This document shows positions 7,085-33,294 of a stretch of 44,305 nt of DNA, one piece after another. Positions within the stretch are counted from its first letter, which is position 1. Each line of letters opens with the position of its first letter. The translations under genes and the position numbers were made by a program. Source of the stretch: Phoronis australis (taxonomy: Eukaryota > Animalia > Phoronida); the NCBI GenBank assembly GCA_002633005.1, contig NMRA01001168.1:1-44305 (forward strand), written 5' to 3'. A model generated the notes under the pieces. It was not told the origin of the DNA and searched no databases. It saw only the letters and a program-made list of their open reading frames with translations.

Positions 7085-7384
7085 GTGCATGTGCTCATAC
7101 AAAATAGGCAGTGCGACCGGTGACACCATCAACACGGTGCACAGAATTGGCGCCATAACTACATGTAGAGAGGTGGAGCCGCGATGCCCAAATGACTGCA
7201 GAAATAACGCGGAGAAGTTCTTTAAGTTCAGCACTACAGCAGGAAGGAACAAAGTGTGCAGTATTTATGGTGGTTCAAGCATAACAGGGGTTGTTGTTTA
7301 TTCCGGTTCCATTGCGAGTAGTTGCCAAGGTTACGCAAGGTATCAAACTACAATAGGAGAGGGAATCATATGCTGCAAAAGGCC
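7085..7384 (+). CDS. Cys-rich repeat protein, domain exon 1 (phase 2-2, 300 nt, 9 Cys)
   Basis: Acceptor gttctttag|G, donor CC|gtaagt. Encodes CMC...CREVEPRCPNDC...KVC...C...IICCKRP. Confidence 0.85.
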
Positions 7385-8574
7385 GTAAGTATAATATTTT
7401 ATTTAGTAGTGATACATAACATAAACAGTGTGATACATAAGACAATTTTCTTGTTTTCTTCAAAAGCTGAATACCGTATACTACATGTATGTACAACCGA
7501 CAACTATTGGCATGACTGTTTTGCACTAGTTACATGTAGTTTGTCTAAAACCTTATCTAATTGTGAACCTTCCAACAGCACATAAACAAGGAAATTGAGC
7601 ATACATTTCAGGGGCATACAGTCAGGACCGCATTAATATTCCTCGGACTTGAGGCTCCCAGTCTATAAGTAATCTGGGACCCTAGTCGTTACAAGTGCTT
7701 GTAACGAAGATTTTCGTACTGTGCGCACCTCTCTTCTGTCAGCATAACTTTTGAGACCTGCAGTGACGAAGCAGGGTTCCTAATTTGTGCGAGACCCTAT
7801 GCTTTGCTTATTGAGGACTGTGAATTCCCCCGTTTTCACCAAATTTGGATTTATCCTCGCAAGGACGAGACGTGTCCCCTTCTTTGCGCTGGGCCCCATT
7901 CCGTAGCTTACATGCATTTAGCTGCATGACTGGGTGGTGCGGCACTGCATACAGTACTAAACCTAATTAAATAATATATACCAACAACATTTATTGTTTT
8001 CGTAAATCGCACACTCTCAGCCAATGCCCGAGCATCTGAACTTTTTACAACGGTTAGTATCAGATTTGTTAGGCAATTTCTTAAGTAATGATGTCGTCTA
8101 CGTAATTACCAGGCTTTTCGGCCTATATTGAGAGCAATATCATCATAACAATTAGGTAACAAACGAATAAATTACCTCGCTAAGGCGAACTTCTATTTTT
8201 CGAAGAAGAACCGGAAACAGCTTTGTGTCTCGAAATGCCCAAACGTCAAACCGCGCTTAATGTGTGATATTCATTTGGTTTGATCGATCAGGTTTTAAAA
8301 AAGAAAGAATATAACGAAAAAATATGTATAGGCAGTAAGTAGACCAATGCCAAAATTAAGAAAAGTTTCAGCAGAGAGTATATTTCAGTGGTTTTGATGT
8401 AGTTTTCAAGCATTTTCAATTCTGCTTATATGGTTTAAGCACAAATACGTCATTTTAAAAAATATACTGTAGGTAATGAAAAAACATTTTCATAAAGTTA
8501 ACGTGTTGGCTAAGGTTTAAGGTGTTCCGTAACTATTGCTTGATCATTTAAAGTATCGTCCATTGTTATTTCAG

Positions 8575-8868
8575 TTGCAGTGCATGCCGACGGTATTACA
8601 AAGTGGGGTATTCAGCTTACCTTCAATATCTCGACAGTTGGAAACCAAATGTACCAAACAACGACCTCTACTATGCTTGCTTGAGCAGAGGCGAACTGGA
8701 GAATGTCTGTTTCGCCGATTGCAAGAAAGCCATGTCTTCGTTAACACCTCAAAATTTTTGTAACACCGTTAAGAGGCAAATTGGATATCCTGGTGCGACA
8801 TTTGGAGTTTCATTTTCAGCCCCATACTATACGAAGCGGGAGTTGTCAAGTCCGGCGGTCTGCTGTGG
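8575..8868 (+). CDS. Cys-rich repeat protein, domain exon 2 (phase 2-2, 294 nt)
   Basis: Acceptor ttatttcag|T, donor GG|gtaaga. Encodes CSACRRYY...YYAC...VCFADC...FC...AVCCG. Confidence 0.85.
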
Positions 8869-9698
8869 GTAAGAGAACCAGAAAAAGCACATAAAAGCAG
8901 TGCGCGAGCTTTCTTTCACGTCATACATATACTTCATGCAGATGCATGCATGTACATAATGTATCTACAGGTTTCCAAAGATGTTTACATGCATGTAGTG
9001 TTCTTGGGTGGGAACTATCTTTTACAAGAAATATAAATTGATTTTTTTCTTTTTTAGTAGTTTCTTCTCTACCGCGGTAAGAATTCAAGATACATTTACG
9101 TGTAATAATACGTGTAAGAGTATGTTGTCGTTAGCGTAGATGACAGTGTAGTCTTCTTTTGCAGTCGGTGAAAGCCATTATTTTTCGAAATCGTACTGCG
9201 CACAGACACTGCCTTGTCCTTAGATGGGCGGTTAATCAGTCAAATCTCCTAATCCAGTGTATTCAAATGTGCTGTAGGCATACTTTTGCTCTCAACTACA
9301 TCCTCGCTGCAACTATTCACTTAAATCCTCATTTCCTCAGTGTTTACATGTAGCTAGCAAAAACAAAATATTATTCATGGTGCTTACTCTCATTTTGTTC
9401 TTTACCCTGTCATGGATATTCTCGCTTCAGAATTTACTAGAATTGGCTAATCTTAAAATTGAAAATTCACTGTTCGCGACTTGATTCATCGTCTCATTGT
9501 ACAATTCAAGATGACACGAGTGTTAACTTTGGCATGATAGCCCTTTAAGGGTTCAAGTTGGAGATTGGCTTCAGGCCCATTTTTCAACAAGGCAGGGACC
9601 TTGTTTTTGGCCGGGATCTAGGCTATAGTAGTTTTTTAGCATTGTGGAAAACCGAGCACTTTCTCTCAGCATATTTTAAGAGTTCCTCAAATTTTCAG

Positions 9699-10016
9699 GT
9701 GCATATGTGATTTAGAAGCAGTTATCAATGGACAGTCTTCGAGTATGCCGGTTCACCTGCATCAGTCGAAAGAAACAACAACCTTCGACTGCGCTAAACA
9801 GTCTGGGCAATGCAAGGACCATTGTCGTTCAGTGATCGCATCGGCGCTGAACAACAAGAAAGCTACGTTCTCATCCTTTGACCAAGCATCCGGAGACAAA
9901 GTCTGCGGGCTTCTGGGTGAGCACAATTCTGTTAACTCCCCGGGACATGTCGTGTACTCCACCTACAGCTACGGAACTGGATTGAAAAAAGACTATCTGG
10001 GGACAGTTTGTTGTGG
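9699..10016 (+). CDS. Cys-rich repeat protein, domain exon 3 (phase 2-2, 318 nt)
   Basis: Acceptor attttcag|G, donor GG|gtatgt. Encodes CICDLEA...FDCAKQSGQCKDHC...KVCGLLG...DYLGTVCCG. Confidence 0.9.
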
Positions 10017-10361
10017 GTATGTAGCGATTTCAACATTTATATGATAAATGTGTAAAAAAAGTTATCGGAGTTGTGTATCTGACACATGCCCAGAAAAACA
10101 GGCGGACGACCATACGGAAGGGAACGCTGAGTGAGACACAGCTTCAGCGAGAGAAAGAGGGAGAGTTAGAACCGGCAGGGAACTGGGACAGGATAAGGGC
10201 GGGGTGGAAATGTGGACGAGCAGATGCACGACGCAAAAAGGGAGATGCAATCAATTCAAATTTATTTGGGCGACGACCTAAAATGTACACTTGTGAAAAA
10301 TCCAAGTGGACAAAATGAACAACATCTTTGGATTTCAACGGCTAATTGGTTTTAATTCTAG

Positions 10362-10679
10362 GTGCACGTGTGACTTAAAGGCCTCTCTTGCTTCGGGAAA
10401 GCTGGTGGAAGTTCAACTTCCCTTAACGCAGTATTTGAAAACCAAGTTTTACACGTGTCAAAACCAAAAACAAGATTGCTCGAACGACTGCAGGAGTGCT
10501 ATTGGTGCTGTGTTCAACAAAGATAGAACAATGTTTGGGAAGTTTGATGCCAATTCCGGAAGGAAAATGTGTGATCTGGTTTGGAAAAAGAATTTTACTG
10601 CCACTGATATTCCAGTTTACTCACAATACAAGTTCGGACAGATCACTGAAATGGACCCACTAGGAACCGTCTGTTGCGG
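10362..10679 (+). CDS. Cys-rich repeat protein, domain exon 4 (phase 2-2, 318 nt)
   Basis: Acceptor tttaattctag|G, donor GG|gtaaga. Encodes CTCDLKA...FYTCQNQKQDCSNDC...KMC...PLGTVCCG, with an NFT sequon. Confidence 0.9.
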
Positions 10680-11145
10680 GTAAGATCTTGAATTGCATTT
10701 GGTTCATGTTTTAAGAAATGTAATGATGTCATAATCTTGTATTACCTGATCCCAATTTTACAATCGCATTAATGTCATTAAAATGTTTATCCGATTATTG
10801 GCAGAATTTTCATTATGGGTTAAAAATGATTGACTTAACCAAATTATACATTGTGTCAAAATTAAACGAATCAACACGTCAGTAGTAAATGCGTGTGCTC
10901 AATTCGCTGTGAATTTGTTTACATATACATGCTCTGATACACACGGAAAAAGCGAGAAAAGGTAACGATTTTTGAACGTACGGTGATGTATGTGCTATTA
11001 AAGTTCTGTACCCGGATCCAGACTACGTAAAATCACTACTCTTGCTGCACGGTATTAGACTGTTAGGGATAACGATTATCTCAAAAGGATCAACCTGTCG
11101 ATTAAACCATATCGTATGTTTAAAGCAGCCTTAACCACATTCTGG

Positions 11146-11614
11146 TGTTAAGAAACAGTTACCACTACTACAGTTGCTACCATAGCAACGTCACCTTGTT
11201 CTTATAATTTGTGTCGCAGAATGTGTTATTGTGTATTTGCTTCATTTAGTTTAGTCATCGTATTACATCACTTACTGTTGTTGTTTTCTACCACTTTCTT
11301 AGACTAGAAGATTAGTAACACTTTCTGTTCCTAGAACTGTTTGTTTGTCAGCATAGTGCATCTTTATTTGTTCGTTTAATTTGATTGGTTTAATTCGTGT
11401 TTCTCTAGTCTCTATATATATCACTTTCACTTGTATTTCATGTAGTAGCATTAGTAGCATCAGTAGTTTTCATGAGTAGTTCTTTCTTCGCATTGAGAGT
11501 TGTTCTCATCATTCGTTGACAGTCTTCAATATACTAGTCAAGACTCATCTCTTGTGTTCTTGCCTACGAACCACCTCGTACACAGCCGAACCGCATTTTC
11601 CCGTGTGCCCCCCA
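11146..11614 (+). repeat. 5' LTR of BEL element (TG...CA)
   Basis: Starts TGTTAAG and ends CCCA just before the PBS. 11261-11413 is repeated at ~16040-16180. The exact 5' boundary is inferred because the 3' LTR is incomplete. Confidence 0.7.
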
Positions 11615-11619
11615 AATTT

Positions 11620-11632
11620 TGGTGTCGTGACC
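11620..11632 (+). promoter_or_regulatory. Primer binding site, tRNA-His-like
   Basis: TGGTGTCGTGACC immediately after the LTR, one mismatch from TGGTGCCGTGACC (complement of the tRNA-His 3' end). Confidence 0.7.
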
Positions 11633-14600
11633 GTCGATTGAAGACTGGTTGATTCACTTCACCGTTCAACTAATATACTAGCTACCACGGACACTTCTTT
11701 GAAACGCCTGAAGTCAAAACGCGCCCCACAGAAAGGCCAAGTTACCACCCTGCTCTACCGTCTACAGGAGCTATCGCCTTCGTCATCTCAGAGCAAACTT
11801 CTACTGGGCACCCTTAACACCAAGCTGAACACCATTCATGAATTCACCGCTGCCATGCACGACCTTATCGATGAAGACAACGCAACCGAGGAAATGTTGG
11901 CCGATGAATCCTTCATGACTGAGATAGAACTTGTTAGTTTTTTACATCTCGAGGTTCACTACGCACTCCCGTCTCCACAACCTGCCGTGATCACCGCACC
12001 CTCACCTGGAAATGCACGTCTACCCAAGCTGGAACTACCTCGCTTTTCTGGCGATCGGTTGGACTTCCCATGTTCTCCGCCACTATCGACACCAATAACC
12101 AGCTTCCGGTTAATCAAAAACTTCAATATTTGCTTCCGGTGATTGATGGACCTGCCAAAGAAGTAAAAAGTGGACTCACCCTCACGCCAGAAAATTATAT
12201 CACTGCAAAAGAACTTCTCACAGAACGCTACGCTTCAGTAACTAAGCTCAAAGCCGACATCTTCCGCTCGCTTCAACCTCTGCCACACTCATCCCAAGCA
12301 AAATTTTGACACTAATACGCACACCTGGAAAAAGTTCTTCGCACTCTTGACTCTACCGATCCTTTTGGTAACAAGGACTTTCTCGTTACCGTTGTGTTAG
12401 ACAAGCTGCCAATCGAGATACAGCGCAACATAGCACGCCACAACAATGGAAGTTCAGAATGCGACCTTGCCACTCTGTGCGCATACATGTACCTAAAAAC
12501 TGAACGCGATATTATGGAGACAGGCAACCACCATCAGAACTAGCTGTCCGCCAGTCCCAGTGATTACGTTGCCTAGACAATTAAAACAGGCTTTCTTTTT
12601 CTTAACTATAATTAAGCAAGAATCACAAGAAATGTCTGTTGGGCAGTGAGTGGGTGTGTGGTCCCCCGAACAATAAAAGCATAACATACATTGTGGATTG
12701 GTCTTGTACAGTCTAGCGCTGGTTTGGAAAGCAATCATTGAGCAGAGGTGAAACTTCCGTGGAAACCAGACCACGGGGACCTCCCCTCCAACTATGCCGT
12801 CTCTTACTCTCGCACTCGCGGTATGGTCAAACGTTTAGAGCTCGACACTCTATCCCACTGTTACCAAATTATTAAAAAACAATTGAGCGTAGGGATAATT
12901 GAGAAAGTCTCGAGTGACCATAATGGTCATTTTATCCCACATCAACCAGTGATTCGACCTGGCTCAAAAACCACACATGTAAGCTTGGTATATGACTGCA
13001 GCTGTAATCCCGACCCTGCCAAACCATCCCTGAATGACTGTCTCCAAGTCAGCCCATCACTAATCCATGACCTGTGCGCCATTCTGCTGCGATTTCGATT
13101 GCACAAATTGGCGTATCCACCGACCTCGAAAAATCCTTTCATTCATGTTCACGAATGTGATCGAGACTACCTTAAATTTCTATGGCTTTCAGACCCAAAT
13201 GACCCTGACACGGATTTTTTTTAACATACCGCTTTAGCACTGCACTGTTTGGTGCTGTATGCTCACCGTTTACTTCGAATGCGTTAGTGCGTTACCATCT
13301 TGACCGCTGTGATAACAACCCCATCGTCTCAGACATCAAACGCACTGTTATGTGGACAATATCATTACCAGCTGTCGCACTGTTCACCATTCACATGAAG
13401 GCAGCTGGCTTCAGTTTGCGTTCTTGGGCTTCTTCGGACAAGACTGGTCGAGACACAGCTTCTGATGACTCTACTACCGTGAAAGTGCTAGGCATCAATT
13501 GGGACACTCAAGCAGACAGCGTTAATCTAATGAGCCATGATTCTAACCACTATAACACGCACGTTTACACAAAACGAAATGTTGTCAGTTCGACAGCTAA
13601 GTCGTTTGATCCTCTAGGGCTTGTAAACCCAATAGCTGTTCGTGCCAAACTATTCCTTCAAAATCTATGGGCTGACAAGTGTGAGTGGGATGAACTCCCT
13701 GTCCAGTATATTGCATAACGAGTGGTCTGACATTGCAGCAGACCTTCAGAAGTGTAATCAGAAATCTCTTCCTAGGTAATATTTTTCCTAGTATTGATTG
13801 TGTCACCAATGTCAAGCATATGGTGCTGTAGTCTATCAACAATCTTTTGATCGGGCAACATTAATTATGTCTAAGTGTAGAGCATCGCGTACCCCTCAGA
13901 TGTAAGCGTACATTACCACAGTTGGAGCTACTAGAAGCTTTAATCAGTATACTATGTCCTCATTAGCAGATGTACATGTAATCTCAGTGGACAATGTATT
14001 TCTTTGGTCAGAGAGCCAGATTACATTGTGCTGGCTACAATCTAAGAAAAAATGCTTGTATTTGTTCAGAACCGTGTAACTGAAATTCATGCCCTGAACG
14101 CCAGTGCCAAATGGATGCACTGTCCAACAGATAGTTACCCGGCAGATATTTTAACCAGGGGTATAGTTTTTGAAACTTTGAAACGATCACGCTTATGGTG
14201 GAACGGCCCCGACTGGCTTCCCAAGCAACAATGGCCACCCTAATCACTACATTTGGACACTACCCTGAATGTTCTGGTCTTTCCAGTAACAAATGACCCG
14301 CGTAGCAATCAACGTCCTTCAGCCAACGTTCAACTGGTGTCAGCCAAATCATGGACATCAACAGGTTCTCTACCCTTCGACGATTGCTTCGTGTCACCAC
14401 ATGGATAAACAGATTTGTCAACCGGTGCAACGACACAACCTCAGCCGTTTCCGAGACTCTAACCGCGCAAGAACTAATTTCTGCGAAACGTCGGTGGATT
14501 TGGGCTACACAACATGAAATCTACCACATAAACATCGATGACGTCATACAGGCCAGAACCAAAACCCCACTCGTCAAACAAGATGGCCTATTACTCAGCG

Positions 14601-16039
14601 CAGGAAGAATATACAACGCCAACCTACATGACCACACAAAGTTTCCAATCATGTTGCCATCCGCCCAAAAGTTCACAGAATTGGTCCTCAAAGACGTCAG
14701 AACCCTCTTCAGTGGTGTCAACATAATCAGCACATACTTACGTCAGAACTACTGGATTCCAAGAAACCGACAACGCCTAAAGCTGTCATCCGGTTGTTTG
14801 TACCGTGTTGCAGCGTGACTGGTCAACCGAATCCTCAATTAGCCACGTCTCCACTGCCTGCTGACCGCGTGAGAGATGCACAACCCTTTGAGATTACTGG
14901 TGTTGATTACAATGGCCATCTGTTTGTCAAGAACCCTTCAGACAACAAAAACAACACAGCCCATGTATGTTTGTTTACATGCGCAATTACTCGAGCGATA
15001 CATCTGGAGTTGGTCTCTGACATCATTTATTCGAGCTTTTCGTCGCTTTGCGAGCCGACGCTCCTTACCACGTGTTGTGATTTCTGACAATGCTACAAAT
15101 TCTGTTGGTGCTCCAGCAGACGTCAATGAATTGACCAAATCAGATCACATTCAAGATTTCCTCGCAGATCAACTCGTTTCATGAAAATTCATTCCCCGCC
15201 GCGCTCCATGGTTCGGTGGTTTTTGGGAACGTCTCGTTGGAATTACCAAGACCTGCTTAAAAAGATCCTCGGTCGTTCGCAAGTGCCATTTGACGAATTT
15301 CGAACGATTCTCATGGAATGTGACTGCTTTTAAACGACCACCCCCTTACATTAGTGTCCGGCTCTGAAAACGAACCTGGACCGCTCTCTCCATCACACGT
15401 ATTACCTACACGGACGTAAAATCTCAGGCTTTCCCTTCCGCGACGTCCAAAATGAAGAACTCTCTGACCACAGTTTTGACGCGACCACTGTACAGTTGCA
15501 ATATACAAGGCGATCTGCACTCAACAGTCATTTCTTTCGCAGTTGGCAACACGAGTAAAAACTGCACTTCGTGAACGGCAACACTTCCTAACCCGACGTT
15601 ACCATACTTCACTCATCACCATCGGCGACGTTGTTTTGGTTCACGACGACAAGCCAAGTATTCTATGGAAAATGGCTCTAGTAGAGCGACTCATTTGCGG
15701 GCATGATGGATTCATTTGCTCTGCCGACATTCGTTCTCAGTCTGGCAGAACCAACCGTCCCATGATTAAGCTCTACCCACTTGAGACAGGCGTGGACTAC
15801 GTTCCGGATCCGCCACCCGCCGACACTACGAGTACCCCATCTAATTCGGCCTCAACACCGCGTCCTCCACCACAAAGGCGAGCAGCTTTCCGGGCTCGTC
15901 ACAATATACGACATTGGACAACTGATTGATTCGACTACATTATTTCGTTTTTCATGCGTCTACTTCTTCACATGTTTATCACATATCTCTTATTCTAGCA
16001 TATTTCGCAAGTTATCTTTAGCATAATTGTTATTTGACT

Positions 16040-16173
16040 ACTACATCACTTACTTTTGTTTTTTTCTACCACTTTCTTAGACTAGAAGAATAGTAACGCT
16101 TCCTGTTCCTAGAACTGTTTGTTTGTCAGCAAAGTGCAACCTTATTATTTGGTTGGTTAATTCGTGTTTCTCT

Positions 16174-16180
<7 letters not shown>
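16040..16180 (+). repeat. Partial 3' LTR of BEL element
   Basis: tacatcacttact...ttctaccactttcttagactagaaga...ttcctagaactgtttgtttgtcagca...ttaattcgtgtttctct matches the 5' LTR. No PPT or LTR 5' end is visible. Confidence 0.85.

Positions 16181-16208
<28 letters not shown>
16176..16208. repeat. (CT)n microsatellite running into assembly gap
   Basis: Direct reading. Ns follow at 16209-16292. Confidence 0.95.
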
Positions 16209-16292
16209 NNNNNNNNNNNNNNNNNNNNNNNNNNNNNNNNNNNNNNNNNNNNNNNNNNNNNNNNNNNNNNNNNNNNNNNNNNNNNNNNNNNN
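16209..16292. other. Assembly gap (N run)
   Basis: 84 Ns. Confidence 1.
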
Positions 16293-17038
16293 CCCCCATC
16301 CTCCCCCCTCTCTCTGTCATTATTACATCAAACCAGATTTGATAAGCGTTAGCAATAAGTGTACGAGGAATAGGAGAGTTCACTCTGCCATCTTGCCATT
16401 AGCCGCAATGGTTAAGGGGGCACACTACACTACAACAGGCTTTTGGCTGCCGACACACACCGAAGTACAGATGGGCCCTTTCTTCACGTGCTAATCAAGT
16501 GTCTGAATAAAACAAAGGTTCTTGTAGCATTCCCAACTCACAAGCACTACTGCTGACAACTGAAACTTACTTATGCCACAGATTTTCAATCGATTAATTC
16601 ACATCGGCAAAAAATCCCGGCACACAGAAATGTTACCAAAAAACACCAACTTTGACAAGTTTTCTACCCAAAATTGTCACTACCCTGCAAGTGCTAGGAA
16701 AAATCCGACTACAGATTCAGAATGATCGCACTCTCGAGATTCTTGTGGTCATAGTATGCCCATAGTTACTTTTTGGCAATTTTGATCTGTCTGACAGCCA
16801 ACTAAAAATCGCAGCCTGTATATCGGACATCAGGCTACAAGGTTTCAGCAAACGAAAGTCACCGTTTTTCATCAAAAGTATGTCACGTCTAAAAAACTTG
16901 GATTTTCTCATTCAAAAACACAAGTAAATCAGTTTCCTGGCATTTGTTTTCAGTAAATTCCTCGAACAACCAGCCAAACCTGGCATACGCCCTGGCATAC
17001 GCCCTGCACATAAATTCTAGGGACTAGAAATGGCAAAG

Positions 17039-17125
17039 TGGCTGCTGCCTAACTGTTCAGTGTGGCCCCGTGGCTGCAGCCTAACTGTTCAGTGTGGCCC
17101 CGTGGCTGCAGTCTACCTGTTGAGT
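17039..17125. repeat. 32-bp minisatellite, ~2.7 copies
   Basis: tggctgcWgcctaactgttcagtgtggccccg repeated. Confidence 0.9.
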
Positions 17126-18112
17126 CCATCCAAATCAGTCGCACCAAGCGGCGAATAAAAACCACTAATTTAGCGGCGCAGTCCGAACAATGTAAATACT
17201 GATAAATTCATACCTAAGTTTAATGACGTTCGACGTGCAATGAAAATATGTCTGTGGGCGCCAAATGGGTGGTGACCCCTCTCAGGGTGTACATGTCAGG
17301 ATTGCTAAACAGGTAAAAACCAATGGGTGTGCTACATGACTGTTGAGCCCTCCCTTCGTCTCAAAATTTGGTTGTTCCTCTGACCATTGACAACATGTGT
17401 TGAGGTGGTGATAATATTAGCCCCTTGTAGCGAACTCGCAAGTGAACTCCCCGATTGTAACTCAGTCTTTGGTGTTGGTTTTTAAAAGGCGTGAACGTTT
17501 CACCCCTGAAAGCGAAAATTCAACACTGTGTGGTTGGATTTGTTTAGTGCTTTAATGAATTGCATATTACACGTAGTTGGTGTCTTTTGAAAGCGTAGGC
17601 CTATATGCCCACATAAAATATTTCAAAAAATATAGCGGACACCAAAGTGAACTCAGGAAATGAAGCAATCTTTAGATACCATCGAGTGGTTCACGAGATT
17701 TGAACATTTGCAATTTCTGCTAACTAGGTCCATTGTATAACTGGGTAACAGAAGTTAAAATTGCTTTGCCTAAATCGGTATCGAAAAAGCATCTCACAAC
17801 CATTGTTTCAACAAAGTTTATATACCTGCTCTGATTACATTGCTCGGTACATCTTTTGTGAAATACCATAATTTGGATAATCTCCAGGCGACTTTAACTT
17901 ACAATGAATCTATGAGCATCAAATTAAATCGAGCATCTAGGCTACATGTACATAGGAATGAAAAAAATACCACATTCCATAAAGAAATTAATTCTTGGGA
18001 TATGCTTACCCATAAGTTATGCTTATTAGGGCCAAAAGCAGATTTAATTATGCAAGCACATGAGATTAAATGAGGTCAAACTTGCTGGAACAGAACCAGA
18101 CTTAACTGAGAC

Positions 18113-18690
18113 TATCATGGGACGTTCGGGTGAAATTGTCGCGCGTAATTACACAATTACGACCGAGACTTCTCTCGTGTTTTACGAACATAATCAATAT
18201 ATGCAAGAGAAATTGGTCTGTAGGTTACGGGATTTCTGGAGCAGTTGTACGGTCGTAATTTTACAATCGTATTTTTAACATGTTGTGAAGTGTTCAGAAG
18301 GCAAGGTATACACATGTATATTAATATGAAAAGACTGAAAGGTATCGAAGACTGACTGACTTTTTACATGATGCCCTAGCCATCCAAGGCATTTCAAATT
18401 GGTCCGTTTTAATACATAGTGAGGTGTCTGGCAACTTGCTTTTACTGTATTTCTTAAAATTAGCAAGCTTTTTAAATATTTCGGCCTAACGATTTCAGTC
18501 ACGGGCGATCTCTCGGTAGTAATTACCAGCGAACGATTTTGGTCGTAAAACACGAGCAAAATCTCGGCCGTAATTAGGAGCGTAATTACGGACAAACTAT
18601 TTTGGTCGTAAAGTACGAGCGAAATCCCGGTCGTACTTACATGTCCGAGCATAATTACAGGCGATATTCACTCTTAAACGCCCCATGATA
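18113..18690. mobile_element. MITE-like element with TIRs and internal taattacg/gtcgtaa subrepeats
   Basis: Left end tatcatgggacgtt, right end aacgccccatgata. Subterminal motifs are inverted between the arms. Confidence 0.65.
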
Positions 18691-18707
18691 ATTATACTAG
18701 TAAATAG

Positions 18708-21088: not shown

Positions 21089-21203
21089 GAGATCCCGAAA
21101 TAATTAAGTCGGTATCTCGAGTTCCTAAGGTCCCAAGATAATAAAGTCGGGATCTTCAGATCCCGAGATACTTTAGTCGGGATATCAAGATCCCGAGACA
21201 TTT
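21089..21203. repeat. Hairpin-forming minisatellite (~4 units)
   Basis: agatcccgagata...agtcgggat units repeated in tandem, each self-complementary. Confidence 0.7.
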
Positions 21204-21457
21204 AAACAAGAAACGCGCGATGTCATTTTTGAGCCACCGTACTTTCACGCAACAGTGGAAAATTTTATAAACAATTCCTTTCAACTTTCCGGTGGACAGT
21301 GGATAAAAAAGAGTATCCATCAGTTCCATATGAAACCAGTCAGCCATTTCCAAGTTGTCCAACCTTAGCCAAATTTAATAAGTTTCTAGGGTCTTACTAA
21401 CCTTATCACAACAATACTGGGTTGACGTCTCTGATTTCAAACGTTTATTTTCATCAG

Positions 21458-21793
21458 GAAATGCCTTTCGTGTGCTGTGCGGTACACTCAAATTACCAAC
21501 AATTTTGTCGCAAAAGAGTACAAGTTGGACGGCCCACTTGATCCTTCACCATATTATGACTGTTCACAGCGTCTAACTGCCAAATGTGAAAAAGATTGTA
21601 GTGCGGCTCTGACAGTCGCGAGCAACAAAAAGTACTTTGGAAGAAACTCCGTAGATTCAGTTTCAGCCCAAAAAGTATGTGCTAACATTGGACGACCTAT
21701 ATCCACCCCTGGATTGCGACTCGAAGTGACGTATGACATAGGTGACAATCACCATCACCATTTTGTGGTGCCAGGTGGAAGTGTTTGTTGTGG
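21458..21793 (+). CDS. Cys-rich repeat protein, domain exon 5 (phase 2-2, 336 nt, His cluster)
   Basis: Acceptor ttttcatcag|G, donor GG|gtaagt. Encodes KCLSCAVRY...YDCSQRLTAKCEKDC...KVC...DNHHHHFVVPGGSVCCG. Confidence 0.9.
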
Positions 21794-22436
21794 GTAAGTT
21801 GTATAGTTTTTAACATCGTTCCTATTGTCATTTGTATTACAACCCTCAATGTGAAATAGTGTACATTTATTTCTTGTTCTTTGCATGATTGAGGACAATG
21901 GAATCGGCAAGTTGTCAAATCTGAAGTTAACTGAGCCATGCGCTATCGATCTATGACATTACTCAGTTTATAGGTGCTAACAAGGATATTTTGATTGCAT
22001 AAAATTCAAAGCACGCCATTGGACGGAAGAATTGCTATGTACACTGAGTTAATACCCGAAAAAATCAATGTAACAGACAGCGAAAGCAAACCTTGTGTAG
22101 GCATTTCTGTCTTCAATTGGCGACTTGCCTGCTGCAAAACTGCAACTGTCTACAACTGAAGAAGTCTGCTGCGACTTGGCTATGCCCACTATCAATCAGC
22201 CGGAGACCGAGATAACGACTGTAAGCAGGCCGTTGCTTGTCATCTAGACGGCCGATCGCCTACTTGCAGCGAATCTGACAAGTATTCGTGACGTGCTCTG
22301 AAGTTCATTGCTTTGCAGGACTCTTGTTTTCGGTGGCGAGAATTGTGAAATTGGTTGAACTTACAATAAGTTGTAATAGGTCTCCATTACTCATGCTTTG
22401 ATATTCCGTTTATTCGCAGCAGAGACACATGTAACC

Positions 22437-23574
22437 GATTGTTCTAGAACACCCTCACCCCCACCCACGACCCCATCGACCTACGAGCTGTGGCATTAGA
22501 TGTATCTTTGCGCTGTTTACATTTCACGATGATATTACCTTCCCATAAGACATACCTACACGCGAGTCTGCCTTGGCTCACGTCCAGTGGTTAAAACCGA
22601 AAACCCGAAAGATCATGATCTGGCAAAGCGAATTGCGAACTAGACAATGACAATCATTTCTAGCTATTATAGGAGCTTTTCGTCGAATTATGCATCGCAC
22701 CTGACTAAAACATCAAAGTCACGTTGTTCTAAAAAACCTTTTGAACACAAAGGACACATTAGGAGGTCTTCGGTGTATTTAGTGTCTTCCAACTCGACAA
22801 AATACTCCCGTTATCAATCTTTTTCTTCGAGCACTCCCCCGTTTAGTTCCCAATATCGGTAACTCGCCATTTTAACATTTTGCACACCAGGGCAGGGATA
22901 CATACGTCTTGCTACCTGCCGGGTGCAGTGTTAACAATGGCGAGTTATCAGGTTTGGCAACTGAACGAGGGACTGCTCGAAAAGAAAGTTTGATGTCACA
23001 GAAAGTCCCAAGAGCGGTTCTAGTAGGCCTAGCCCTGTTCTAGTAAACTTAGGGAGAGAGAACGTTAACTTGAATGAACATAACTTGACATTATATTACA
23101 TTCATTTGATTTCTATTGTTTACTCGTTTACAATATACTCCATGTAACACCGAGGTACTAGTTTATTGAGCAGTTCATTTTTCAAACTGTATTTACTGAA
23201 GAAATTGCATATTCGTCGGTTCCTCTCCCAAAAAACCTGAATTTGCCATTCAATGAAGAGCAGACGAGATGATTACACTTTGCCGGGAACACTTTTAACG
23301 TTAGTATATGTACATGTAAGTCTTTGATTTGATTTGGGTCGCGTTTTTTCTGTCCGTGGCTTTCTATCTTGTCGAATTGACTCTCCTAGGTGGAAAAAAA
23401 CAGGGGCAAGCCTACTGAATTCCTTGTCTACGATGTCAGCGCTTGTTCTATGTTTAGATCGAGTCGAGCCCGAGTAGACTGAGTCGAAAAGATCGTGGTT
23501 CTTGGGTCATCGGTCTACGGGGATCGTGGGTTGATGGAGTCGTAAGGTGTGGGTCAAAGTGTTTTAGAACAATC
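22437..23574. mobile_element. Non-autonomous TIR DNA transposon inserted in a pseudoexon
   Basis: Left gattgttctagaacac...cgaccccatcgacctacgag vs right (reverse complement) gattgttctaaaacac...cgactccatcaacccacgat. Flanks acatgtaac / acgtgtaaa resemble a decayed ~9-bp TSD. Second copy at ~5860-6423. Confidence 0.75.
22815..22992. repeat. Long imperfect palindrome (nested small MITE/foldback)
   Basis: tcgagcactccc...taactcgccatt..taaca..tgcac pairs with gtgca.tgttaacaatggcgagtta...gggactgctcga. Confidence 0.8.
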
Positions 23575-23575
23575 C

Positions 23576-23868
23576 ACGTGTAAATTAAGAGCACCAAGCG
23601 GCGTCGTTTGAACCAAGGTATCGCTTAAGCTCAAGGGGATCAGCTGCACAAGAGCTCCAGTACATAGATTATTGCCTATATGTAGTTGAGGCTACACTGA
23701 ACATAAATGGGAAAATGCATTTAGTTTCGGACCAAAGTATCCAGGAAACAAAGTGTGTGGACTTCTTGGAAATCGAAAGTTTGTCAGCTCAAAAAGAGTA
23801 GCTTTATATTACGAATCAGACTCAGGGAGGAACTAAAACAGAGTACTTGGGAAATGCCTGTTAAGCGG
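23576..23868 (+). pseudogene. Decayed domain exon (pseudoexon, paralogue of exon 3)
   Basis: Fragments TCKLRA..., PGNKVCGLLGNRKFVSSKRVALY, then after a frameshift GTKTEYLGNAC*, ending gcgg|gtaaat. Contains stops and frameshifts. Not in the ORF track. Confidence 0.8.
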
Positions 23869-24191
23869 GTAAATCTGCAGTGGAAAATCTTGTTCTGAAA
23901 TGCTGCGACCCTGTTAGTGACTATTTCAATTGAGAATTTCTGGAAAATTTCGATATGGTGGTGTCTACTGTCAACTCTCTAGCTACTCCACATAAATGAA
24001 CTGAACAAACGTATAACTGTCTTAGAATCTATCGTGCCTGGGTGCCTGATTGTCATATCGAGAAAGTCTATGAAAGCACTTGGTAATTATAATTCATCAC
24101 TACCTAAAAACTAAACTGAAATTTTCAAGTTAAACAGGAGTGTTCAATTGGGCATTACTTTTTAATTGGCGACAGAGATATTTTTACTGTC

Positions 24192-24330
24192 CATGTACGC
24201 ACACAGCCTACAAAATGGGGGGCTTGAATTTTTGAGAATGTGGACCTTTTTCTTAGATTTACCGGGTACGTTCAGAGCTATGAATTGTGCATTCGCTGAA
24301 TTTTGGCAGTTTCTGCCTTTTTAGTGGACT
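24192..24330 (+). repeat. Dispersed repeat, copy 2 (homologue of 4575-4717)
   Basis: See copy 1. Confidence 0.7.
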
Positions 24331-25030
24331 TTTTCATCGTTTTCTACTTTCTTCAGAGTTTTTGTTTTACTAAGGTATACCTTTTTTGCCCACTTCAATA
24401 AATAGGGACCTGTTCGAGTCACCCCCGAGCGCTCCAGGGTGAGCACATGGTGCTACCAAGCCGTTAAACTACGAAAGGGGTTATTATGTACCTAATACAT
24501 AGTATACACTGTAGCTTAACACATAATTCGGCATCACAGGTACGTTTCACAAAAACTTCAAAACCTGATGACATTTTACACAATGCTAACAGACAGTTTT
24601 TGTTGCCGTAAGTTTTGGAGTTTTTAAGTAACGAATTTTCAATGAAGCAGGTTCCAGGAAAACCAAAGGAATTTCTAAAAACAGCCCACTTGATTGGGGC
24701 GTTTATTTGGAAAATTTTCGAATTAAGCACCATCCCATGCACTTGCCTTCGGAGACAGCAGTGTAGTTCATAGTTTCGTAGCGCAAAGGTGATCGATTTT
24801 ACACTAGATACAACTGATCGAAAATGGAATAAAAATTCAAAATACCCAAGTAACGTATGAAGAACTGGAGTGAAGGTACATAAACCCTCCATCAGGAGTC
24901 CCATGTAAGAAAGCATGGCGTTTCACCGTTCAGTTGTAGCATCTGTCAGAAAGTGTTTCTACAATGCTTGTGGTTGTAAGGAATTTCTGTAAATTCTTCT
25001 ACATGTACACATGTTCTTGCTTGATTGCAG

Positions 25031-25351
25031 ATGCAACTGTAATTTAAAAGCAAAGACTGTAAGTGGTGACATTGTGAAGGTACCGATTACTCTAGCTCAA
25101 TCTGCGAAATACAAGTACTACAATTGCCAAGCTCAGGAAGAGGAATGTCGGAAAGATTGTAGGAGCGTTATTGGAAATGCACTTACCGCTAATAAAGGAC
25201 CATTTACTGAATTTGACAAGTACTCTGGAGAGAAAGTATGCCGGAAGGTTGACCAAAATAGTTTTTTTAATGAAACAGGAATTCCACTATACTCAGAATA
25301 TCAATTCGGAGCCATCGATGGCCTGGATTATCTGGGAAGTGTATGCTGCAG
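25031..25351 (+). CDS. Cys-rich repeat protein, domain exon 6 (phase 2-2, 321 nt; close paralogue of exon 4)
   Basis: Acceptor ttgattgcag|A, donor AG|gtaaga. Encodes CNCNLKA...YYNCQAQEEECRKDC...KVC...DYLGSVCCR, with an NET sequon. Confidence 0.9.
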
Positions 25352-28300
25352 GTAAGATCTCAATGCAAGACATGTGATTTGTCCTAATAATAGTTACACA
25401 AGGCACCCCAATGATTGAAACCCGCATGATAAAATGTTCATGTACTTGTAGTCCCAACAGCGAAACTTGTCTCAAGTCATCGTCCACACAAATCTTTTTC
25501 CTATCGTTTTGACAAAAAATTGTAGAAAGTGAGTACAGGTACGTACAATTTATTGCGTGTCGAAATGGTTGGCATCATCTCATAATTATGTCATCTCAAA
25601 CACATGGGCTCGATTTACTCGCCTATACACGGCTCGGGAGTGCTTAGAACATGTTACATTTATTCTGTAAACGGAGACAACGGACCTGTTGGACTTTATT
25701 TATTTATAATAACTGTTTCAAATGAATGGCTATCTCCTATCAGATTAAGGAGTATATAAAGACTTGTCACGTACATTTCAGGCCCGTCGGAAGGCAAAAA
25801 TTATTGGGGGACACAAACCATTTCAACTTCGCGAAACCATATGAACCCCCGCCCTACCGCCACCCTCGTCCCCGTCTCAAGATGCCACCATATTTGTACC
25901 GAATCTGCCACGTCCGCCCTAGGTGGGGGGTAGAGGGGCGGATGTAGGTGTAGAAAAGAGTCCATGGCCACCTTAAAAGTCTTCCAGATTCCATTTGACA
26001 ATTCGTGGGTGCAAATTTCTGACGGGTAAAACCCTAGCTATTAGTCTGCCCTGACCTCCCAGCTCAAAATCCTGGATCAACCCCTGTTACAATCCCAGGT
26101 ATGAAGCCATCAAGAGTTGAGTAACCGTGAACCAACACGGGGAGAATGGGCCCAGGACCAGTACACTGACCGGTAGCGAGGAGATGCCTCAAGTAGCTAT
26201 AGCTGAGATCTAACAGTATGAAAATACGAAATTCTCGATGAACTATAGCTAGTTGCTGGTCAGCTCAGCTCGTACCGGCCGTCTGAGCTCGCTCTAAGGT
26301 CAAGATTCGTTTTATTGTGATCCAGTTTCGGGAAAGCTTTATTTTATTCTGGTCATCCTTTGAAGTAGTTTTTTGAAAAGGTGAGGCCCCGAAGAACCTG
26401 GTATAGTGTGTTTGGGGCTGTTTCAAAATGCCTAGTTGAAACACGACCGGTAGTCCAGTTTCTGGTGGCTGGGGAAAAAGATAGTGTGTCCCAAAAATGT
26501 ACACACTTCCTGAACGCCTGGAGTTCAAATTCAGTTCCCGTGGATCACTGAGATCTGCGCGGGCCTACTGCATGGTGTCATCTTATTTTTAATGTAGGCA
26601 CGTCAGTCATGAAGTGCACGCGAATCTGGACAAGCAATAAATTAAGTTTTGAAGACCAAAAATTTATTGCTCAATGCTAATGGAAACTAAAAACACCAAG
26701 GAAGTGCACAGAAAACCTTCCAAGCAATGAGTTCAATTTTATGTCGGGTATTAAGTGATTTTTAAAACTTTTTTCTATCTACGGTTTGTTACTCCGAATT
26801 TCATCAATGCCTTTGAGAGTTATTTTAGATATGCAAATATCGTCTACAAGTGTATATGACTATTATTTTGGGGATCGGATTATGGAGTTTTTCCAACTTC
26901 TAGCTGCAATTAAATTCACTGAAACATCATCAATTCTTACTAGATTAGCTTCTAATTGTCAAAAAAAAATCATCCATGAATGTATCGATTTCCGTAGATA
27001 TATAAACAAGTAAATCAGAAACCTAAGAATTGGTTTATCAAAACGGAATCTTATAAGCAATTTCGGGGGCAAATGGGAGATGGGGCACTCATATTAAGAT
27101 GGATTTTTTCTCATTTCAGAGGTAACTATAACGGTTCACGAGGTAAACTTGAAATCCATTGACAAAAAAGCAATGAAATCTTTGTTTATGATTGCGAGAT
27201 TTGTTTGAGTAGCCCCTTTCGACATGTACACAGTAATGATCACAAACAGTAGTCTAGACAGCAGTGTTTTCCACATGTGTAAGATTGAACATAGATTAGA
27301 AGTGCATATGAGCAATTGTGTAACGGTACCTAATCGGTTAAACCAGAATCGGGAAAATCAATCTTCTATTTTTACTTACCAGTCACTAATCATAGGTTCC
27401 ATTGTTATGCCTGACATCGCATAAAACTTAATGCGATTCCCTAGTTGGTATCTCGAGTAAAAATGTTATCTCTTGTAAAAAACGGCAAAAACTAACCCAC
27501 AATTGAGTTCCTTGTCATTTTTTATCACGAATAATTATCATTGCCCTTGTTATACTTCTTCAGTAGAAAATTTCGAAATCCTAAATTCATCCATTGTTTA
27601 ATGTAAACATCAAAACAGCCCTGGTATTTGTAATTTGAAGTTGTTATATAGTTTGACGTACAGCTGGTGGCGATGTGATTTTAGCGCTGATATGGCCCAT
27701 TTCACTCGTGTATCTTTATCTATATTAACGCACTGCATAGGAATGAGAAATTTCAATATTATGTCATTTTCTTTCTCTTGCATTCAAAACATACACCCAT
27801 GAATGAAATGGAGAGCATTAAAATAAAATTGCCACGAGAAAGTACTCAAGAAAGTATTTCAAACCTCCTGCTCAGTTCCCACTAACTAGTCACGATTAAA
27901 TAGCTTGTAAACATTTTTGCTGAAAACCCCTCTACTACACTGGTAACATACACTTGTACATGTATGAGAACAGTTTACCTCCATTTGGTTTGTAGGACTG
28001 TCGTTGTTGTATATGCGCACCTAAAGATTCTGACCAGATCTTGTAGGCTGTAAACTTGACAAATATGGAACAGAGTTATTTAAATGCTTGGAGTACCTGT
28101 AAGCGGTTAGCATACATGCACACATTCATGTACCTAACTACGGATATAGGCGTAAGTTCAAATATTAGCGTAATTGGGACTAAATAAGCGAATATCTACG
28201 GACATATCCTACGGTTTAATAAAGGTGACACTTCGTGTAAGCAAGTTCATTACACAAGCCCAAATTATTGAATTTTCGGTATTAAAGCAAGCACGTTGTA

Positions 28301-29457
28301 TTACAATTTCACAGACACTGATACCAGTGTTCAAAATACAATTACCTTCAAACCACACACAATAAACAACTTGCAGCGTTGTACAGGAAATTATATTTGC
28401 TACCGGGCCCAACGTTTGACGGTCTTCGAGTAACTTGAGGCATGCCATGCAAGTACTCAGTTCTTGAATCGACTTATGACTACAGAGATTAGTCTCCGGG
28501 TCCTGAAGTTATTTAAAAACTATTCCTAGATGCTCCAGCTATGCGTTTAACTTCGGTTGTTAGTAAGTGGGGCAATCCTGGTGGTCTTTTATTCCTACTC
28601 GTTGAACAGAGGCCATTGCGAAAGAAAATCAAAGACCTCAAACAATCACTAACAAAAAAGTTCCTCGGGTTCTTAAATTTGCTGAATCTTTTATTTTGAT
28701 CAGTTTTGTTTGACTTTAAAACTCGAAATGATTTCATAGTTTCGTATCGGTCTAGTTTTATTTGACAAAATGAACTTCAGCAAAAGTAGGTGGTCATAAG
28801 GCCACGGATTTTCTGGAGGCATCGAAAAAGTTTCGAAGATTACAGTTAGATTATGCATGGTCGACACGCGGATGTGTGAATATAATGTACTCGAATAAAT
28901 GGTCATGGTTCTTGTCTGTGTATTACATTCAAATTTTGCTTCAATTCAAAGAGTATCATTCGCCAAACCCGGGCTAGGAAACAGGGGGGGAGGAGGAGCG
29001 AGGAAAGAGGGAGCGGGAGGGAAGGCGATGGAGGGGAGAGAGGGAAGGAGTTAGGGAGAGGGAAATTTCATTTAACACAAAACCGATCCTACATTCCCGT
29101 TCATTGACCACATAGTCGTTGTTTAAACTTATGTGCCCGAAAAAATCACCTAGGCAAAAACAAAAGTTATATTGAAGTTATTCCTAGAGACATTGCTCGG
29201 CGTATATAATGACGTGACACTAGTCAAATTGTAGAGCCTGGTCTTGGGGAACATCGAGCTGTCAATGCTTAGTGAGCCCAGAATCAACTATTGTGACTAA
29301 CAATACTTAGACCAATGTCAAAATCACCAATTGTTTGTTTTTATAACAGAAATCGGGTTTATAGCCGATTTAAGGACATGTCCCCTAGAGTAAAATCTTG
29401 CCCGTTACTAGTAGATTGTTCATAGTTGGGCCGTTCTATAGTATAGGTTTAAGAGAA

Positions 29458-30050
29458 GTTACCTATCTGCGACCTGTTGCGTTTGACTATCGCCAAAGTA
29501 CATGTAACATCAACAGGTGAGCATTTGAAACGAAGATTTCTGATAGCACTCAGACGAAGGGCCCAGTGCCCGGTTGCATGAAAGAGTCTCATATAGGGAC
29601 TCAGCCAAGGTCCTTAAGTCTTTTTTTGCGTATTTGTGTCTTGGTGAACTCTCACATGTAACATTTTTCTATCACGTCATCCTTATTATGAGCTCCTATT
29701 TGATTAATGACATTTTCAAACAATATAACTAAATACTGCGACCATAGTTCATTGAAAATAAATAGGGACTCAGTCCTCAAAACGGGGGTGAAAAGATCCG
29801 CAATTATTTTCGATAATATTGACAATTCAATGTAGAGTTCACTCTCGATTTGTATCAAAGTCAAGAGTTGACGTAGAAATGTAACTAAAACACTACAGGA
29901 AAGGGCAATCGATGTATTCAAAAGTGCAAAAATACGCAGTAGATTTAGGGAACTTAGTTGAGTCACTATGTGAGACTGTTTCGTGCAACCGGGCAAAGGA
30001 GGGTCACAAAAGCTAGGTCCTCAAATACAACCAGGTCGCCAATAGGTAAC
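29458..30050. mobile_element. MITE-like element (outer) with nested insertion
   Basis: gttacctatctgcgacctg ... caggtcgccaataggtaac terminal inverted repeat. Confidence 0.6.
29568..29994. mobile_element. Nested MITE with ~54-bp TIRs (Harbinger-like ends)
   Basis: gcccggttgcatgaaagagtctcatatagggactca ... tgagtcactatgtgagactgtttcgtgcaaccgggc. Superfamily tentative. Confidence 0.75.
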
Positions 30051-30106
30051 AACATTAATCCCTCTTCGTGTGATCGTTCAACTTAACTGTGCGTTCTTTT
30101 TACCAG

Positions 30107-30439
30107 GAAATGTCAAGCGTGCGTTTTGCGATACATTGAGAATGACAACGGTCAAGTGAAAAAAGAATTTGTTCTGGATGGCCCTCACAACGTGACGTCG
30201 TACCACTGTTCTCGACGATTAACCACTACTTGTGAAAAATCTTGCAACGCCACTCTGTTGTCACCAAGCAACCATGAGTACTTTGGTAACACTTTCGTCA
30301 ATGCGGTCTCTGCACAAAGAGTGTGCGAAAAGCTTGGGCGAGCGATACCCAGCCCTGGATTACGCGTTGAAGTCAATTACGATATGGGGGACGACCACTA
30401 TCACCATTTTCTGGTGCCTGGCGGGAATGTATGCTGTGG
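30107..30439 (+). CDS. Cys-rich repeat protein, domain exon 7 (phase 2-2, 333 nt; close paralogue of exon 5)
   Basis: Acceptor tttttaccag|G, donor GG|gtaagt. Encodes KCQACVLRY...YHCSRRLTTTCEKSC...RVC...DDHYHHFLVPGGNVCCG. Confidence 0.9.
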
Positions 30440-32549
30440 GTAAGTACATGTATGTAGCCCAACGTACCGTCACGAGGGCACGAACCTGCAAATAGTTAAA
30501 GTTTGTGGTAGCTCGAATCTCTTGTTAAACAGCCCGGACGATTCAAGTGGATTCAGTTCCATCATTTCTGGGTTTCAGATCTTTATTTTACCAAGTGCAG
30601 TCAGGTTGTTATTAAATATTTTTTTCTCAATGTCCGGATTTCGTTTCTCATGGATTTTTTCTCTTAAACAGTAATATCATTTCGTCGGTCTTATTCCCTT
30701 ATTCCTAGATTTCGGGTTGACTTACTCCATTCTTGGAAGGGGTATTAAAATGCAGAGATCCTGAAATTATGAAATTTTAGAGAAATAAATTTAAAATTAC
30801 AACAGTGAGCCTTAATAGACTTGGATTTGGCAATTAGTTTCTTCGGAGTGCGAGGTTTTGCTCGCGACTGCAAAACGATTGAAGAGGACTTTTGGTTCTA
30901 CCGGAGAAATCACGAACGCGAACTAGTCCTGTATCCAAAAATGGAAGGTGTTCTGATATATTGAGAGGTACAACAGAAGTGTTGAGGCAATGAATACGGT
31001 CGGGTCCAAAGCACAAAAAATGAGAGAAACTGAAAAGTGCCCTCCTTCTGATAATCAATTTCTCGATGAGAGAAAACTTCACTTGTCCCAATTTACGTTA
31101 AGGATATCTCAAACCTTGTGCACAAAAATTCGTCATTTTTACAATATTTCAATGTCTAGAGAAATAGATTACCTTCATTCTCGGGGAACTACAAACACGA
31201 AATATGTACCGTGTACACTATTAGGATTTTCAATATAAGGGCCCAGTTTCTTCGTTATGTAACAAAAACGAATAGTACTTACAAAAAATACTTTACATTT
31301 TGTGAGTTGATTTGTCATAGAAATTAATTGAAAAGACTTGTCGAATATTCCTTACACCGTTTTCGAAGTTACTGGTGAAGTTTTCTTTTAAGAGGTTTCA
31401 CTAAATTGACGGAGGGATTATTTTGCTGTGAATGTACCTTTTTAAACATGTAATTTTGTCTTAAAACAGATGTTAACGTAATAATAACAATGGTAATTTA
31501 AAGATAAGAAATATTTTTGCATTTCCTAGTCTACTTTCTTTTAAAAAACATACCTTTGCCAGTTGCCAAAGCCTAGATTTTTACATACCAGCTAGGATGG
31601 AGGCCACTAAATAGGGTTTGAGATAATCTTAAGAAAACGAACATGCTGCACACCGCTGCTGCAACACTGGTGGTGATAGTAATAATGATCGCACAAAAGA
31701 TACTGGTGAGGTAAATTAGGAAAGGACTGACGTAACTATGACGATGACTGTGGTTAAGAGGTATAATATCGATGATGACTTGCCATGGGGTGATACTGGT
31801 TGTCTTGAAAAGGAAGCTGATTAGCTGTGCTTCTGGTTGGTTATATTTTAGGCTATTGTACATTCCGATATTAATGTATCATGTATACTTTGCTCTGCCA
31901 AAAACTTTATTGGAACTGAAATACAATACAATTAAGCGGTAACATCCACATGCAGTCAGGGAAAATACAGGAAATAAATGACCAAGAATATATGTAAGGT
32001 ATAAGGTGTTTCCAGTACACTAGATTATTCTCTGAAACAAAAGTCAATGCAACAAGACACTCCAGAATTATAGTGTGTCATTGCTTCCTAACACGAATCA
32101 GACCAGGATATTTCATCCTTCAACTATACAAAAATTGATCTACGAAGAACACATCCATGACCCATAAACAAACAGACAATCAAGTTATACTAAACCAAAT
32201 TCATTAGGATGCTTGCTTAAAAACACTTTAAAAAGCCATCCGGATGCTGTATATTTAACACAACTGGAGTCGAAAATTGTGGTAGAATGCATATTGATCA
32301 GTCATCGTCAAAGTACTACCATTCTTCGCCACAACAGCTTGTTGGCTTGGTTTGTGCAGTGACGACTTTCGGTCACTGCTAATTAGAACAGCATTTCCCA
32401 CTCAAAAGTTATACCTATACGGTGCCTTTTAAAGGTATATGGGTACAAGTACATGTATAGTACACGTCCATGTATGAATACAATTGTAAATACCAGTAAT
32501 CTATGTGCTGCTTAAGAGTTGCTCAGAAATTTACATTGCCATGTTACAG

Positions 32550-32928
32550 ATGTAGTTGTGAAGTGAAGATAAGATACGAGATCAACGGAACTGTAAACAC
32601 GCTCGGCGTTGCCGCTGAACTGGCAGCTAGGCCAAAATACTTCGCTTGCGGTAGCCACGACATCCAATGTAAGAACCAGTGTAGAACGACCGCTGGTAAG
32701 GCCCTTACTGGTGAAGAGAAACCAGTAACTAAGCTGGATCCGAACATCGCCAAGAAAGTCTGCATGCTTCTGAATACGACAGTACCTGATCCAGGCGCCT
32801 TAGTGTATACTGAGTACGACGTGGGAAGGGGAAGCCGGGGAGACTCTCTGGGATATGTCTGTTGCTTTGAAATTCCTGAGGAATACAGGGCAATTGGACT
32901 TCCGCCAATCCTTGCGACCTTGTGTTAA
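32550..32928 (+). CDS. Cys-rich repeat protein, terminal exon (domain 8 plus 22-aa tail ending in Cys)
   Basis: Acceptor tgttacag|A (phase 2). Encodes CSC...FACGSHDIQCKNQC...KVC...SLGYVCCFEIPEEYRAIGLPPILATLC then TAA TAG. No donor after CC. Confidence 0.9.
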
Positions 32929-33294
32929 TAGACTATATAACGAGTTCCTTGAAATTATCTGCTCACGACAACAACCTAATTTTTGTTTCACGAATATAAT
33001 TTTGAATCGTCACTTTAACTTTATTGTGATATCAGGGCCTCCTTAATTATGTGGGTTGGGGGTATGATCTTCCCCAATAACATGGTGTGACAATTTATCT
33101 GGGTTATTTTACAAATTTCACAAAATCGAAAGAATTATAAACGACTTCTGTGTACCATATTACCGTTCCTTTAGGACCATGGGCCTGTATCTAAAATAAT
33201 ACATTTTTCGTGGCCAATTGTTTACTCACACATCCGTTTTAATTAAATCAGTTTTTGGTCACAGTAAGATTAAAAACCGGACGATAGCCGCACA

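Follow-up and report, generated by a model that had tools for sequence, protein, structure and literature searches.

In this work we describe a gene of nine exons on contig NMRA01001168.1 of the phoronid Phoronis australis (GenBank assembly GCA_002633005.1). The window that we analysed is the stretch of 44,305 nucleotides that starts at the first position of this contig, read on the forward strand. We have little doubt that the nine exons make up one real gene, and the sequence suggests that its product is likely a secreted, disulfide-rich protein of domains in tandem. The predicted product, including the likely signal exon, has 887 residues, 66 of them cysteines, and eight copies of a single domain. 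The cysteines obey a positional rule, from which we propose that a disulfide staple probably runs from the end of each domain to the third cysteine (C3) of the next. As to what such a protein would be for, we lean slightly towards a secreted, stapled rod, a multivalent unit from which an egg coat, a cuticle or a similar outer matrix may be built.

The starting point was an earlier note on this DNA, which had reported eight scattered short open reading frames with a common cysteine framework. A regular expression for this framework, run over all six frames, confirms the report: it matched eight times, in every case on the forward strand, and not once in 200 hexamer shuffles of the window. The details given for the exons also hold. 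The seven internal ones measure 300, 294, 318, 318, 336, 321 and 333 bases and every intron is of phase 2, the joined exon translation has no stop other than the terminal one, and the six N-glycosylation sequons that had been listed (NFT, NET, NVT, NAT, NGT and NTT) are all present in the joined frame. Eight cysteine columns are invariant, without exception, and their codons mix TGC and TGT. The polypyrimidine-AG starts are eight acceptors ending in CAG or TAG, with a pyrimidine content that falls in the 81st to 99th percentile of AG sites, and the GT donors read GTAAG in seven of eight cases, compared with 1.7% of the 1725 GT sites.

A hydropathy scan places the first exon at an ATG upstream of these domains; it encodes a hydrophobic peptide of 21 residues and is in phase with the domain exons. 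The window holds two hydrophobic candidates that run from an ATG to a donor, this one at 5133-5197 and a second at 14876-14964, which was dropped as it sits inside a retrotransposon. No membrane anchor was seen in the predicted product, whose tail has 20 residues, and profile scans of all six frames found no ninth domain in the window. The isoelectric points of the domains range from 6.4 to 8.8, most of the domains being basic or neutral.

What is this domain related to? None of the eight domains matched a Pfam family at the cut-off; weak matches to Sod_Cu (0.24) and CoV_NSP4_C (0.0049) were treated as chance. A sequence search of the PDB returned a single match with an E-value of 0.6, the window alignment, used in word-index searches of proteins, gave no matches at near or longer lengths, and metagenome scans with domain 1 and with one of the relatives described below (P0008) returned none. 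We then have the results of a full HMMER scan with a profile over 1.84 billion representatives, which recovered 27 relatives at E ≤ 0.001, 11 of them at ≤ 1e-10 and the best at 1.6e-22. These carry between one and four domains, most of them two to four, and none is annotated with a function; a Pfam search with seven of them gave nothing, bar one match at 0.05. The relatives include a four-domain protein of the rotifer Brachionus calyciflorus (CAF0853428.1), a two-domain protein of the sea cucumber Apostichopus japonicus (XP_071846670.1) and single-domain proteins of the amphioxus Branchiostoma lanceolatum (CAH1233337.1) and its Branchiostoma paralogues, all of them uncharacterised. Further amphioxus paralogues were added by another protein search, with nine matches among 1015 candidates. 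In the reverse direction, a profile built from 54 domains of the relatives alone finds six of the eight window domains at an independent E-value (iE) ≤ 4e-9, and scores domains 1 and 2 only weakly (iE 0.004 and 0.036). Domain 1 is closest to the first domain of the sea cucumber protein (P0012, pairwise E 5e-8), and in a tree it groups with that domain and with amphioxus, with support of 99/92 and on a long branch.

The Brachionus, Apostichopus and Branchiostoma proteins are significant profile matches that follow the same positional cysteine rule as the window protein, but they have at most four domains among the 27 matches, compared with eight in the window; the eight-domain gene is the largest form of the domain among those found. 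The rotifer-like relatives are numerous and varied. Two relatives (P0002 and P0008) and members of their clusters lie on contigs of equal size (5771 and 17267), which suggests that they are paralogues lying side by side in a gene cluster. We found no functional data on the relatives, and no paper turned up that names any of the six accessions searched. In the literature covered, which is largely outside the subscription journals, the matches listed hold no description of the tandem family, of its range beyond the arthropods or of the staple. The family of tandem domains is undescribed, and in the window gene a little-known domain occurs in a new, tandem form. The signal-like exon, the lack of a Pfam match and the 27 uncharacterised relatives together support the proposal, made in the earlier note, of a secreted, disulfide-rich, tandem-domain protein from a family without a name.

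To describe the cysteine rule we number the positions C1 to C10, after the ten cysteines of the lone amphioxus domain; all ten are present in the amphioxus single-domain proteins. In the window protein, C7 occurs in domain 1 alone and a tail cysteine in domain 8 alone, with counts of 9, 8, 8, 8, 8, 8, 8 and 9 from first domain to last. For the count over the 27 relatives, five proteins that are cut inside a domain were set aside and first segments that are incomplete at the N-terminus were excluded. There, C3 is present in all 36 complete domains that are not the first of their protein, and C7 in none of the 36. Fifteen first domains follow a signal-like peptide; C3 and C7 are both present in 11 of them and both absent from four, and none has one without the other. 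The tail after the last domain has exactly one cysteine in 21 of 22 true tails; the exception is a tail of six residues. Furthermore, five first domains have a second cysteine in the loop, and in all five a further cysteine stands 8-9 residues ahead of C1, which is roughly the site where the CC of a preceding domain would lie. In the tree, the four first domains that have lost both C3 and C7 sit among domains of the internal type, which is what one would expect of an internal domain that came to stand first and lost its orphaned C3.

We propose the following mechanism for this rule. In a lone domain, with its ten cysteines, C3 would be bonded to C7, and in the last domain of a protein one member of the adjacent pair, C8 or C9, would bond the tail cysteine, C10. 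Where domains stand in tandem, the tail would be replaced by the following domain, which would be without C7 and whose C3 would pair with whichever of C8 and C9 is free in the preceding domain, the two orphan cysteines facing each other over a linker of 1-4 residues (linkers measure 1-3 residues in the window protein and 2-4 in the relatives). A staple of this kind would use all 66 cysteines (8 x 8 + 2), and it would account for the loss of C3 in domains that become first. The product would be a stiff rod that bears eight different surfaces, with clusters of histidine on domains 5 and 7. The beads on a string as which the protein had been pictured are likely wrong if taken to be flexible, since linkers this short and the cysteine rule point to covalent links between the domains. 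One module per symmetric exon is also known from tandem extracellular modules that grew by symmetric exon duplication, and covalent links between neighbouring repeats from repeats with inter-repeat disulfides, such as thrombospondin type 3 repeats. That said, the window domain is unrelated to these and the domain 4 model gave no fold match, and the common shuffled extracellular modules mostly have phase 1-1 exons, as opposed to 2-2 in the window gene.

The same counts can be read in another way. The cysteines of the internal domains could all pair internally, and the one that is left over in domain 1 and in domain 8 could join separate molecules head to tail into a disulfide-bonded polymer; the number is even (eight) in the internal domains and odd (nine) in both end domains, and polymer formation suits coat proteins. 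We find this improbable, however, as it leaves unexplained both the loss of C3 in internal-type domains that have turned first and the even number, ten, in the single-domain amphioxus proteins. A further possibility, compatible with the staple, is that the exons are interchangeable cassettes that alternative splicing combines into rods of varied length and make-up. Every exon is of phase 2-2, a stop at the junction arises in none of the 36 pairings of exons, and the cysteine count stays even for any subset of the domains between 1 and 8. But symmetric exons may also be a mere footprint of exon duplication, and the relatives have fixed forms of one to four domains, so that we hold such splicing to be rather doubtful.

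The fold of the domain was modelled with AlphaFold. For domain 4, with the eight-sequence alignment, the model has a predicted local distance difference test score (pLDDT) of 84.7 and a predicted template modelling score (pTM) of 0.77, and its elements follow the order strand-strand-helix-helix-strand-strand; every domain is predicted to have a four-stranded sheet and two helices. The model of domain 1 was poor (pLDDT 54.8) and a fold search that started from it was uninformative. With the domain 4 model there was no Foldseek match at E ≤ 0.001 in the PDB or BFVD and no match at Z ≥ 5 among 48,161 chains, the best reaching 4.6. Judging from this model, a new fold is possible.

The divergence of the domains, which are between 19 and 55% identical to each other, had been taken in the earlier note as a diversification pattern of the immune or toxin kind, and this part of its account is not borne out. 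For domains 5 and 7 the proportions of synonymous (pS) and non-synonymous (pN) differences, with the cysteine columns left out, are 0.69 and 0.26, and for domains 4 and 6 they are 0.67 and 0.36, with a reversal in 0 of 300 bootstrap samples for each pair. Between many distant domains both classes of site are saturated, and such pairs are uninformative; in the pairs that can be aligned, the non-synonymous rate (dN) is below the synonymous rate (dS), and the synonymous sites are close to saturation. This implies that the duplications are old and that the reading frame was kept. As far as the codons tell, the domain copies are old, with a frame maintained by purifying selection. Could the protein nonetheless be a multivalent effector for defence, recognition or venom, the divergent domains of which bind different targets? 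The low identity between domains, the basic or neutral character of most of them and the many and varied rotifer-like relatives would fit such an effector, and the CxxxC helix beside a CxC strand is reminiscent of cystine-stabilised defence peptides. In the cystine-stabilised alpha-beta defensins and toxins, whose helix is cross-linked to a beta-hairpin, CxxxC comes before CxC, which is the opposite of the order in the window domains. Since no defensin or toxin chain is among the fold matches listed for domain 4, dN is below dS wherever it is measurable and the likely relatives for which there are data work in eggshell and cuticle, we consider an effector unlikely.

Those likely relatives are two arthropod proteins, crustacean larval factor (Clf) and insect follicle cell protein 3C (Fcp3C, with the FCP3 domain; PMC6391395 and PMC5493777). 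The earlier note had called the domain family one that could not be named, and this stands as far as Pfam is concerned, but the agreement in spacing with Clf/FCP3 makes it probable that the family is not altogether unknown. The published Clf/FCP3 spacing ranges were counted by hand over eight chosen sequences (PMC6391395), and domain 1 lies within them at eight of eight gaps, for which the chance is about 3e-8 before the post-hoc choice is allowed for. Domain 3 likewise lies within the ranges at all gaps, and the other domains are off by at most three residues per gap. Like Clf, the window protein starts with a likely signal peptide; the order of the cysteines (CxC, C, CxxxC, C, C, CC, C) is the same in both, their spacings overlap and, by eye, the residues around C6 and ahead of CC follow a similar pattern. 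They differ in that Clf is acidic and has one domain, about 100-200 residues and ten cysteines, whereas the window protein has 887 residues and eight domains of 8-9 cysteines each. Fcp3C/FCP3 has the cysteine order, the net basic charge and secretion in common with the window protein, and in its listed beetle entries C3 and C7 are absent together, along with an extra insect cysteine (by eye, supplement of PMC6391395). Unlike the window protein, it has a single FCP3 domain with a shorter C5-C6 spacing; it is reported from insects only, and a tandem form is not described in the excerpts (PMC5493777, PMC6391395). No window domain, with nine or eight cysteines each, fits the definition of Clf/FCP3 as a single domain with ten. 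From these sequence comparisons we think it quite likely that the window domain is a relative of Clf and Fcp3C, rather than a member of their group, and shares an ancestor with them.

According to these papers, Clf binds chitosan and hinders the growth of calcite (PMC6391395), and knockdown of Fcp3C fractures the chorion and blocks egg laying (PMC5493777). Expression in larvae or in follicle cells is a mark of the two proteins. Clf is given there as arthropod-only, Clf-like sequences not having been found in annelids, molluscs, echinoderms or hemichordates (PMC6391395); in the part of PMC13339497 that is accessible, Clf appears in the reference list only. The role in an egg coat or other matrix, towards which we incline by a narrow margin of confidence, is borrowed by analogy from Clf and Fcp3C, and is the weakest step in our argument. 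From the menu of egg-coat, adhesive, immune and toxin roles that had been offered for the protein, an egg coat or matrix fits these likely relatives, while the immune or toxin pattern falls away. We infer, with less support, that the matrix role is restricted to a tissue or stage. Rather more tentatively, we suggest that the Clf/Fcp3C domain may be an ancient bilaterian extracellular module that builds rods by a disulfide hand-off and whose fold the PDB does not yet contain. Each added exon would replace the preceding tail cysteine, so that no thiol would be left free when a domain is duplicated, lost or skipped.

Several observations weigh against the account given so far. We searched about one-fifth of each of three RNA sequencing (RNA-seq) runs with the same species label (11-13 million records each) and one contig set, and among the joints listed there are no spliced reads that join the domain exons. 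Over the exon bins the reads reach a depth of 0 to 0.42, and only repeats are covered. Most of the mapped RNA reads are less than 95% alike and the runs come from unspecified tissues, so this silence holds for those samples alone. Furthermore, intron 4 holds an 84-base assembly gap (16209-16292). The silence of the runs, the gap and a decayed retrotransposon in the same intron would all be accounted for by a recently silenced gene, or by two gene halves fused across the gap. Nevertheless, the frame of 2.66 kb is intact, the splice sites are canonical and the two halves are complementary, the first being without a stop exon and the second without a signal exon or a domain with C7, which makes either event very improbable in our judgement. 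As to the staple, it is read from cysteine patterns; the four first domains that lost both C3 and C7 may represent a single evolutionary event, and most of the relatives are probably from one group. As to the kinship with Clf and Fcp3C, neither is named in any of the 27 and nine matches of the two protein searches. A 119-residue arthropod cluster with 76 members in the ESM Atlas ranked first for domains 1 and 8 (0.89 and 0.90), but this cluster is unnamed and its matches are at the level of leads (recognition values 2100 and 1752). Finally, the window domains are without the acidity of Clf, so that control of mineral is not indicated.

Table 1. Predicted features of the nine-exon gene in the window of Phoronis australis
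Feature	Position	Strand	Remarks
Two TATA-like motifs, putative promoter	5068..5095	+	Read from sequence, upstream of the start codon
First coding exon, likely signal peptide	5133..5197	+	21 codons and 2 nucleotides; phase-2 GTAAGT donor
Domain 1 exon	7085..7384	+	9 Cys; the only domain with C7
Domain 2 exon	8575..8868	+	8 Cys; most divergent
Domain 3 exon	9699..10016	+	8 Cys
Domain 4 exon	10362..10679	+	8 Cys
Domain 5 exon	21458..21793	+	8 Cys; His cluster in last hairpin
Domain 6 exon	25031..25351	+	8 Cys; 46% identical to domain 4
Domain 7 exon	30107..30439	+	8 Cys; His cluster; 55% identical to domain 5
Domain 8 exon	32550..32928	+	8 Cys and a terminal Cys; stop codon
Three candidate polyadenylation hexamers	33242..33300	+	Sequence only

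Some further observations concern the exons of Table 1 and the rest of the window. The order of the exons for domains 4 and 5, followed by 6 and 7, suggests the duplication of a two-exon unit, and the runs of histidine in the last hairpin of domains 5 and 7 possibly bind metal. The retrotransposon in intron 4 (11261-16198, forward strand) is a decayed element of the Bel/Pao type, with long terminal repeats (LTRs), that is followed by the assembly gap; its direct repeats are 83% alike over 171 bases, and its broken frames match the Pfam families DUF1759, Peptidase_A17 and DUF5641. At 33537-34756 lies a short Kolobok-like DNA transposon. It is flanked by TTAA, has AGG/CCT termini and inverted ends of 171 bases that are 93% alike, and carries a THAP-like fragment on one strand and a P2X7-tail-like fragment on the other, features that are as in the excerpts of PMC9587614. 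RNA reads cover the family of this element well, and some of them skip the element in full. Two decayed fragments on the reverse strand (35708-36967 and 42080-43134) resemble long interspersed nuclear elements; the second has a Pfam match to RVT_1 and is adjoined by a 97-base tandem repeat (41854-42070). Upstream of the gene, the reverse strand (2065-2764 and about 3000-3900) has short frames that gave no Pfam match, and sequence that by eye resembles another decayed retrotransposon. The commonest 8-mer in the window is the palindrome TACATGTA, with 23 copies; it is typical of several marine invertebrate genomes, which a literature search did not confirm.

In summary, we have described a family of secreted domains, present in both protostomes and deuterostomes, that has neither a Pfam model nor a structural match. 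The family likely connects with an eggshell gene of insects, the loss of which makes females sterile. The rule for the cysteines offers a precise and cheap test of how a module becomes a covalently stiffened tandem by exon duplication, and the relatives in Brachionus and amphioxus make the function of the domain testable in laboratory animals.

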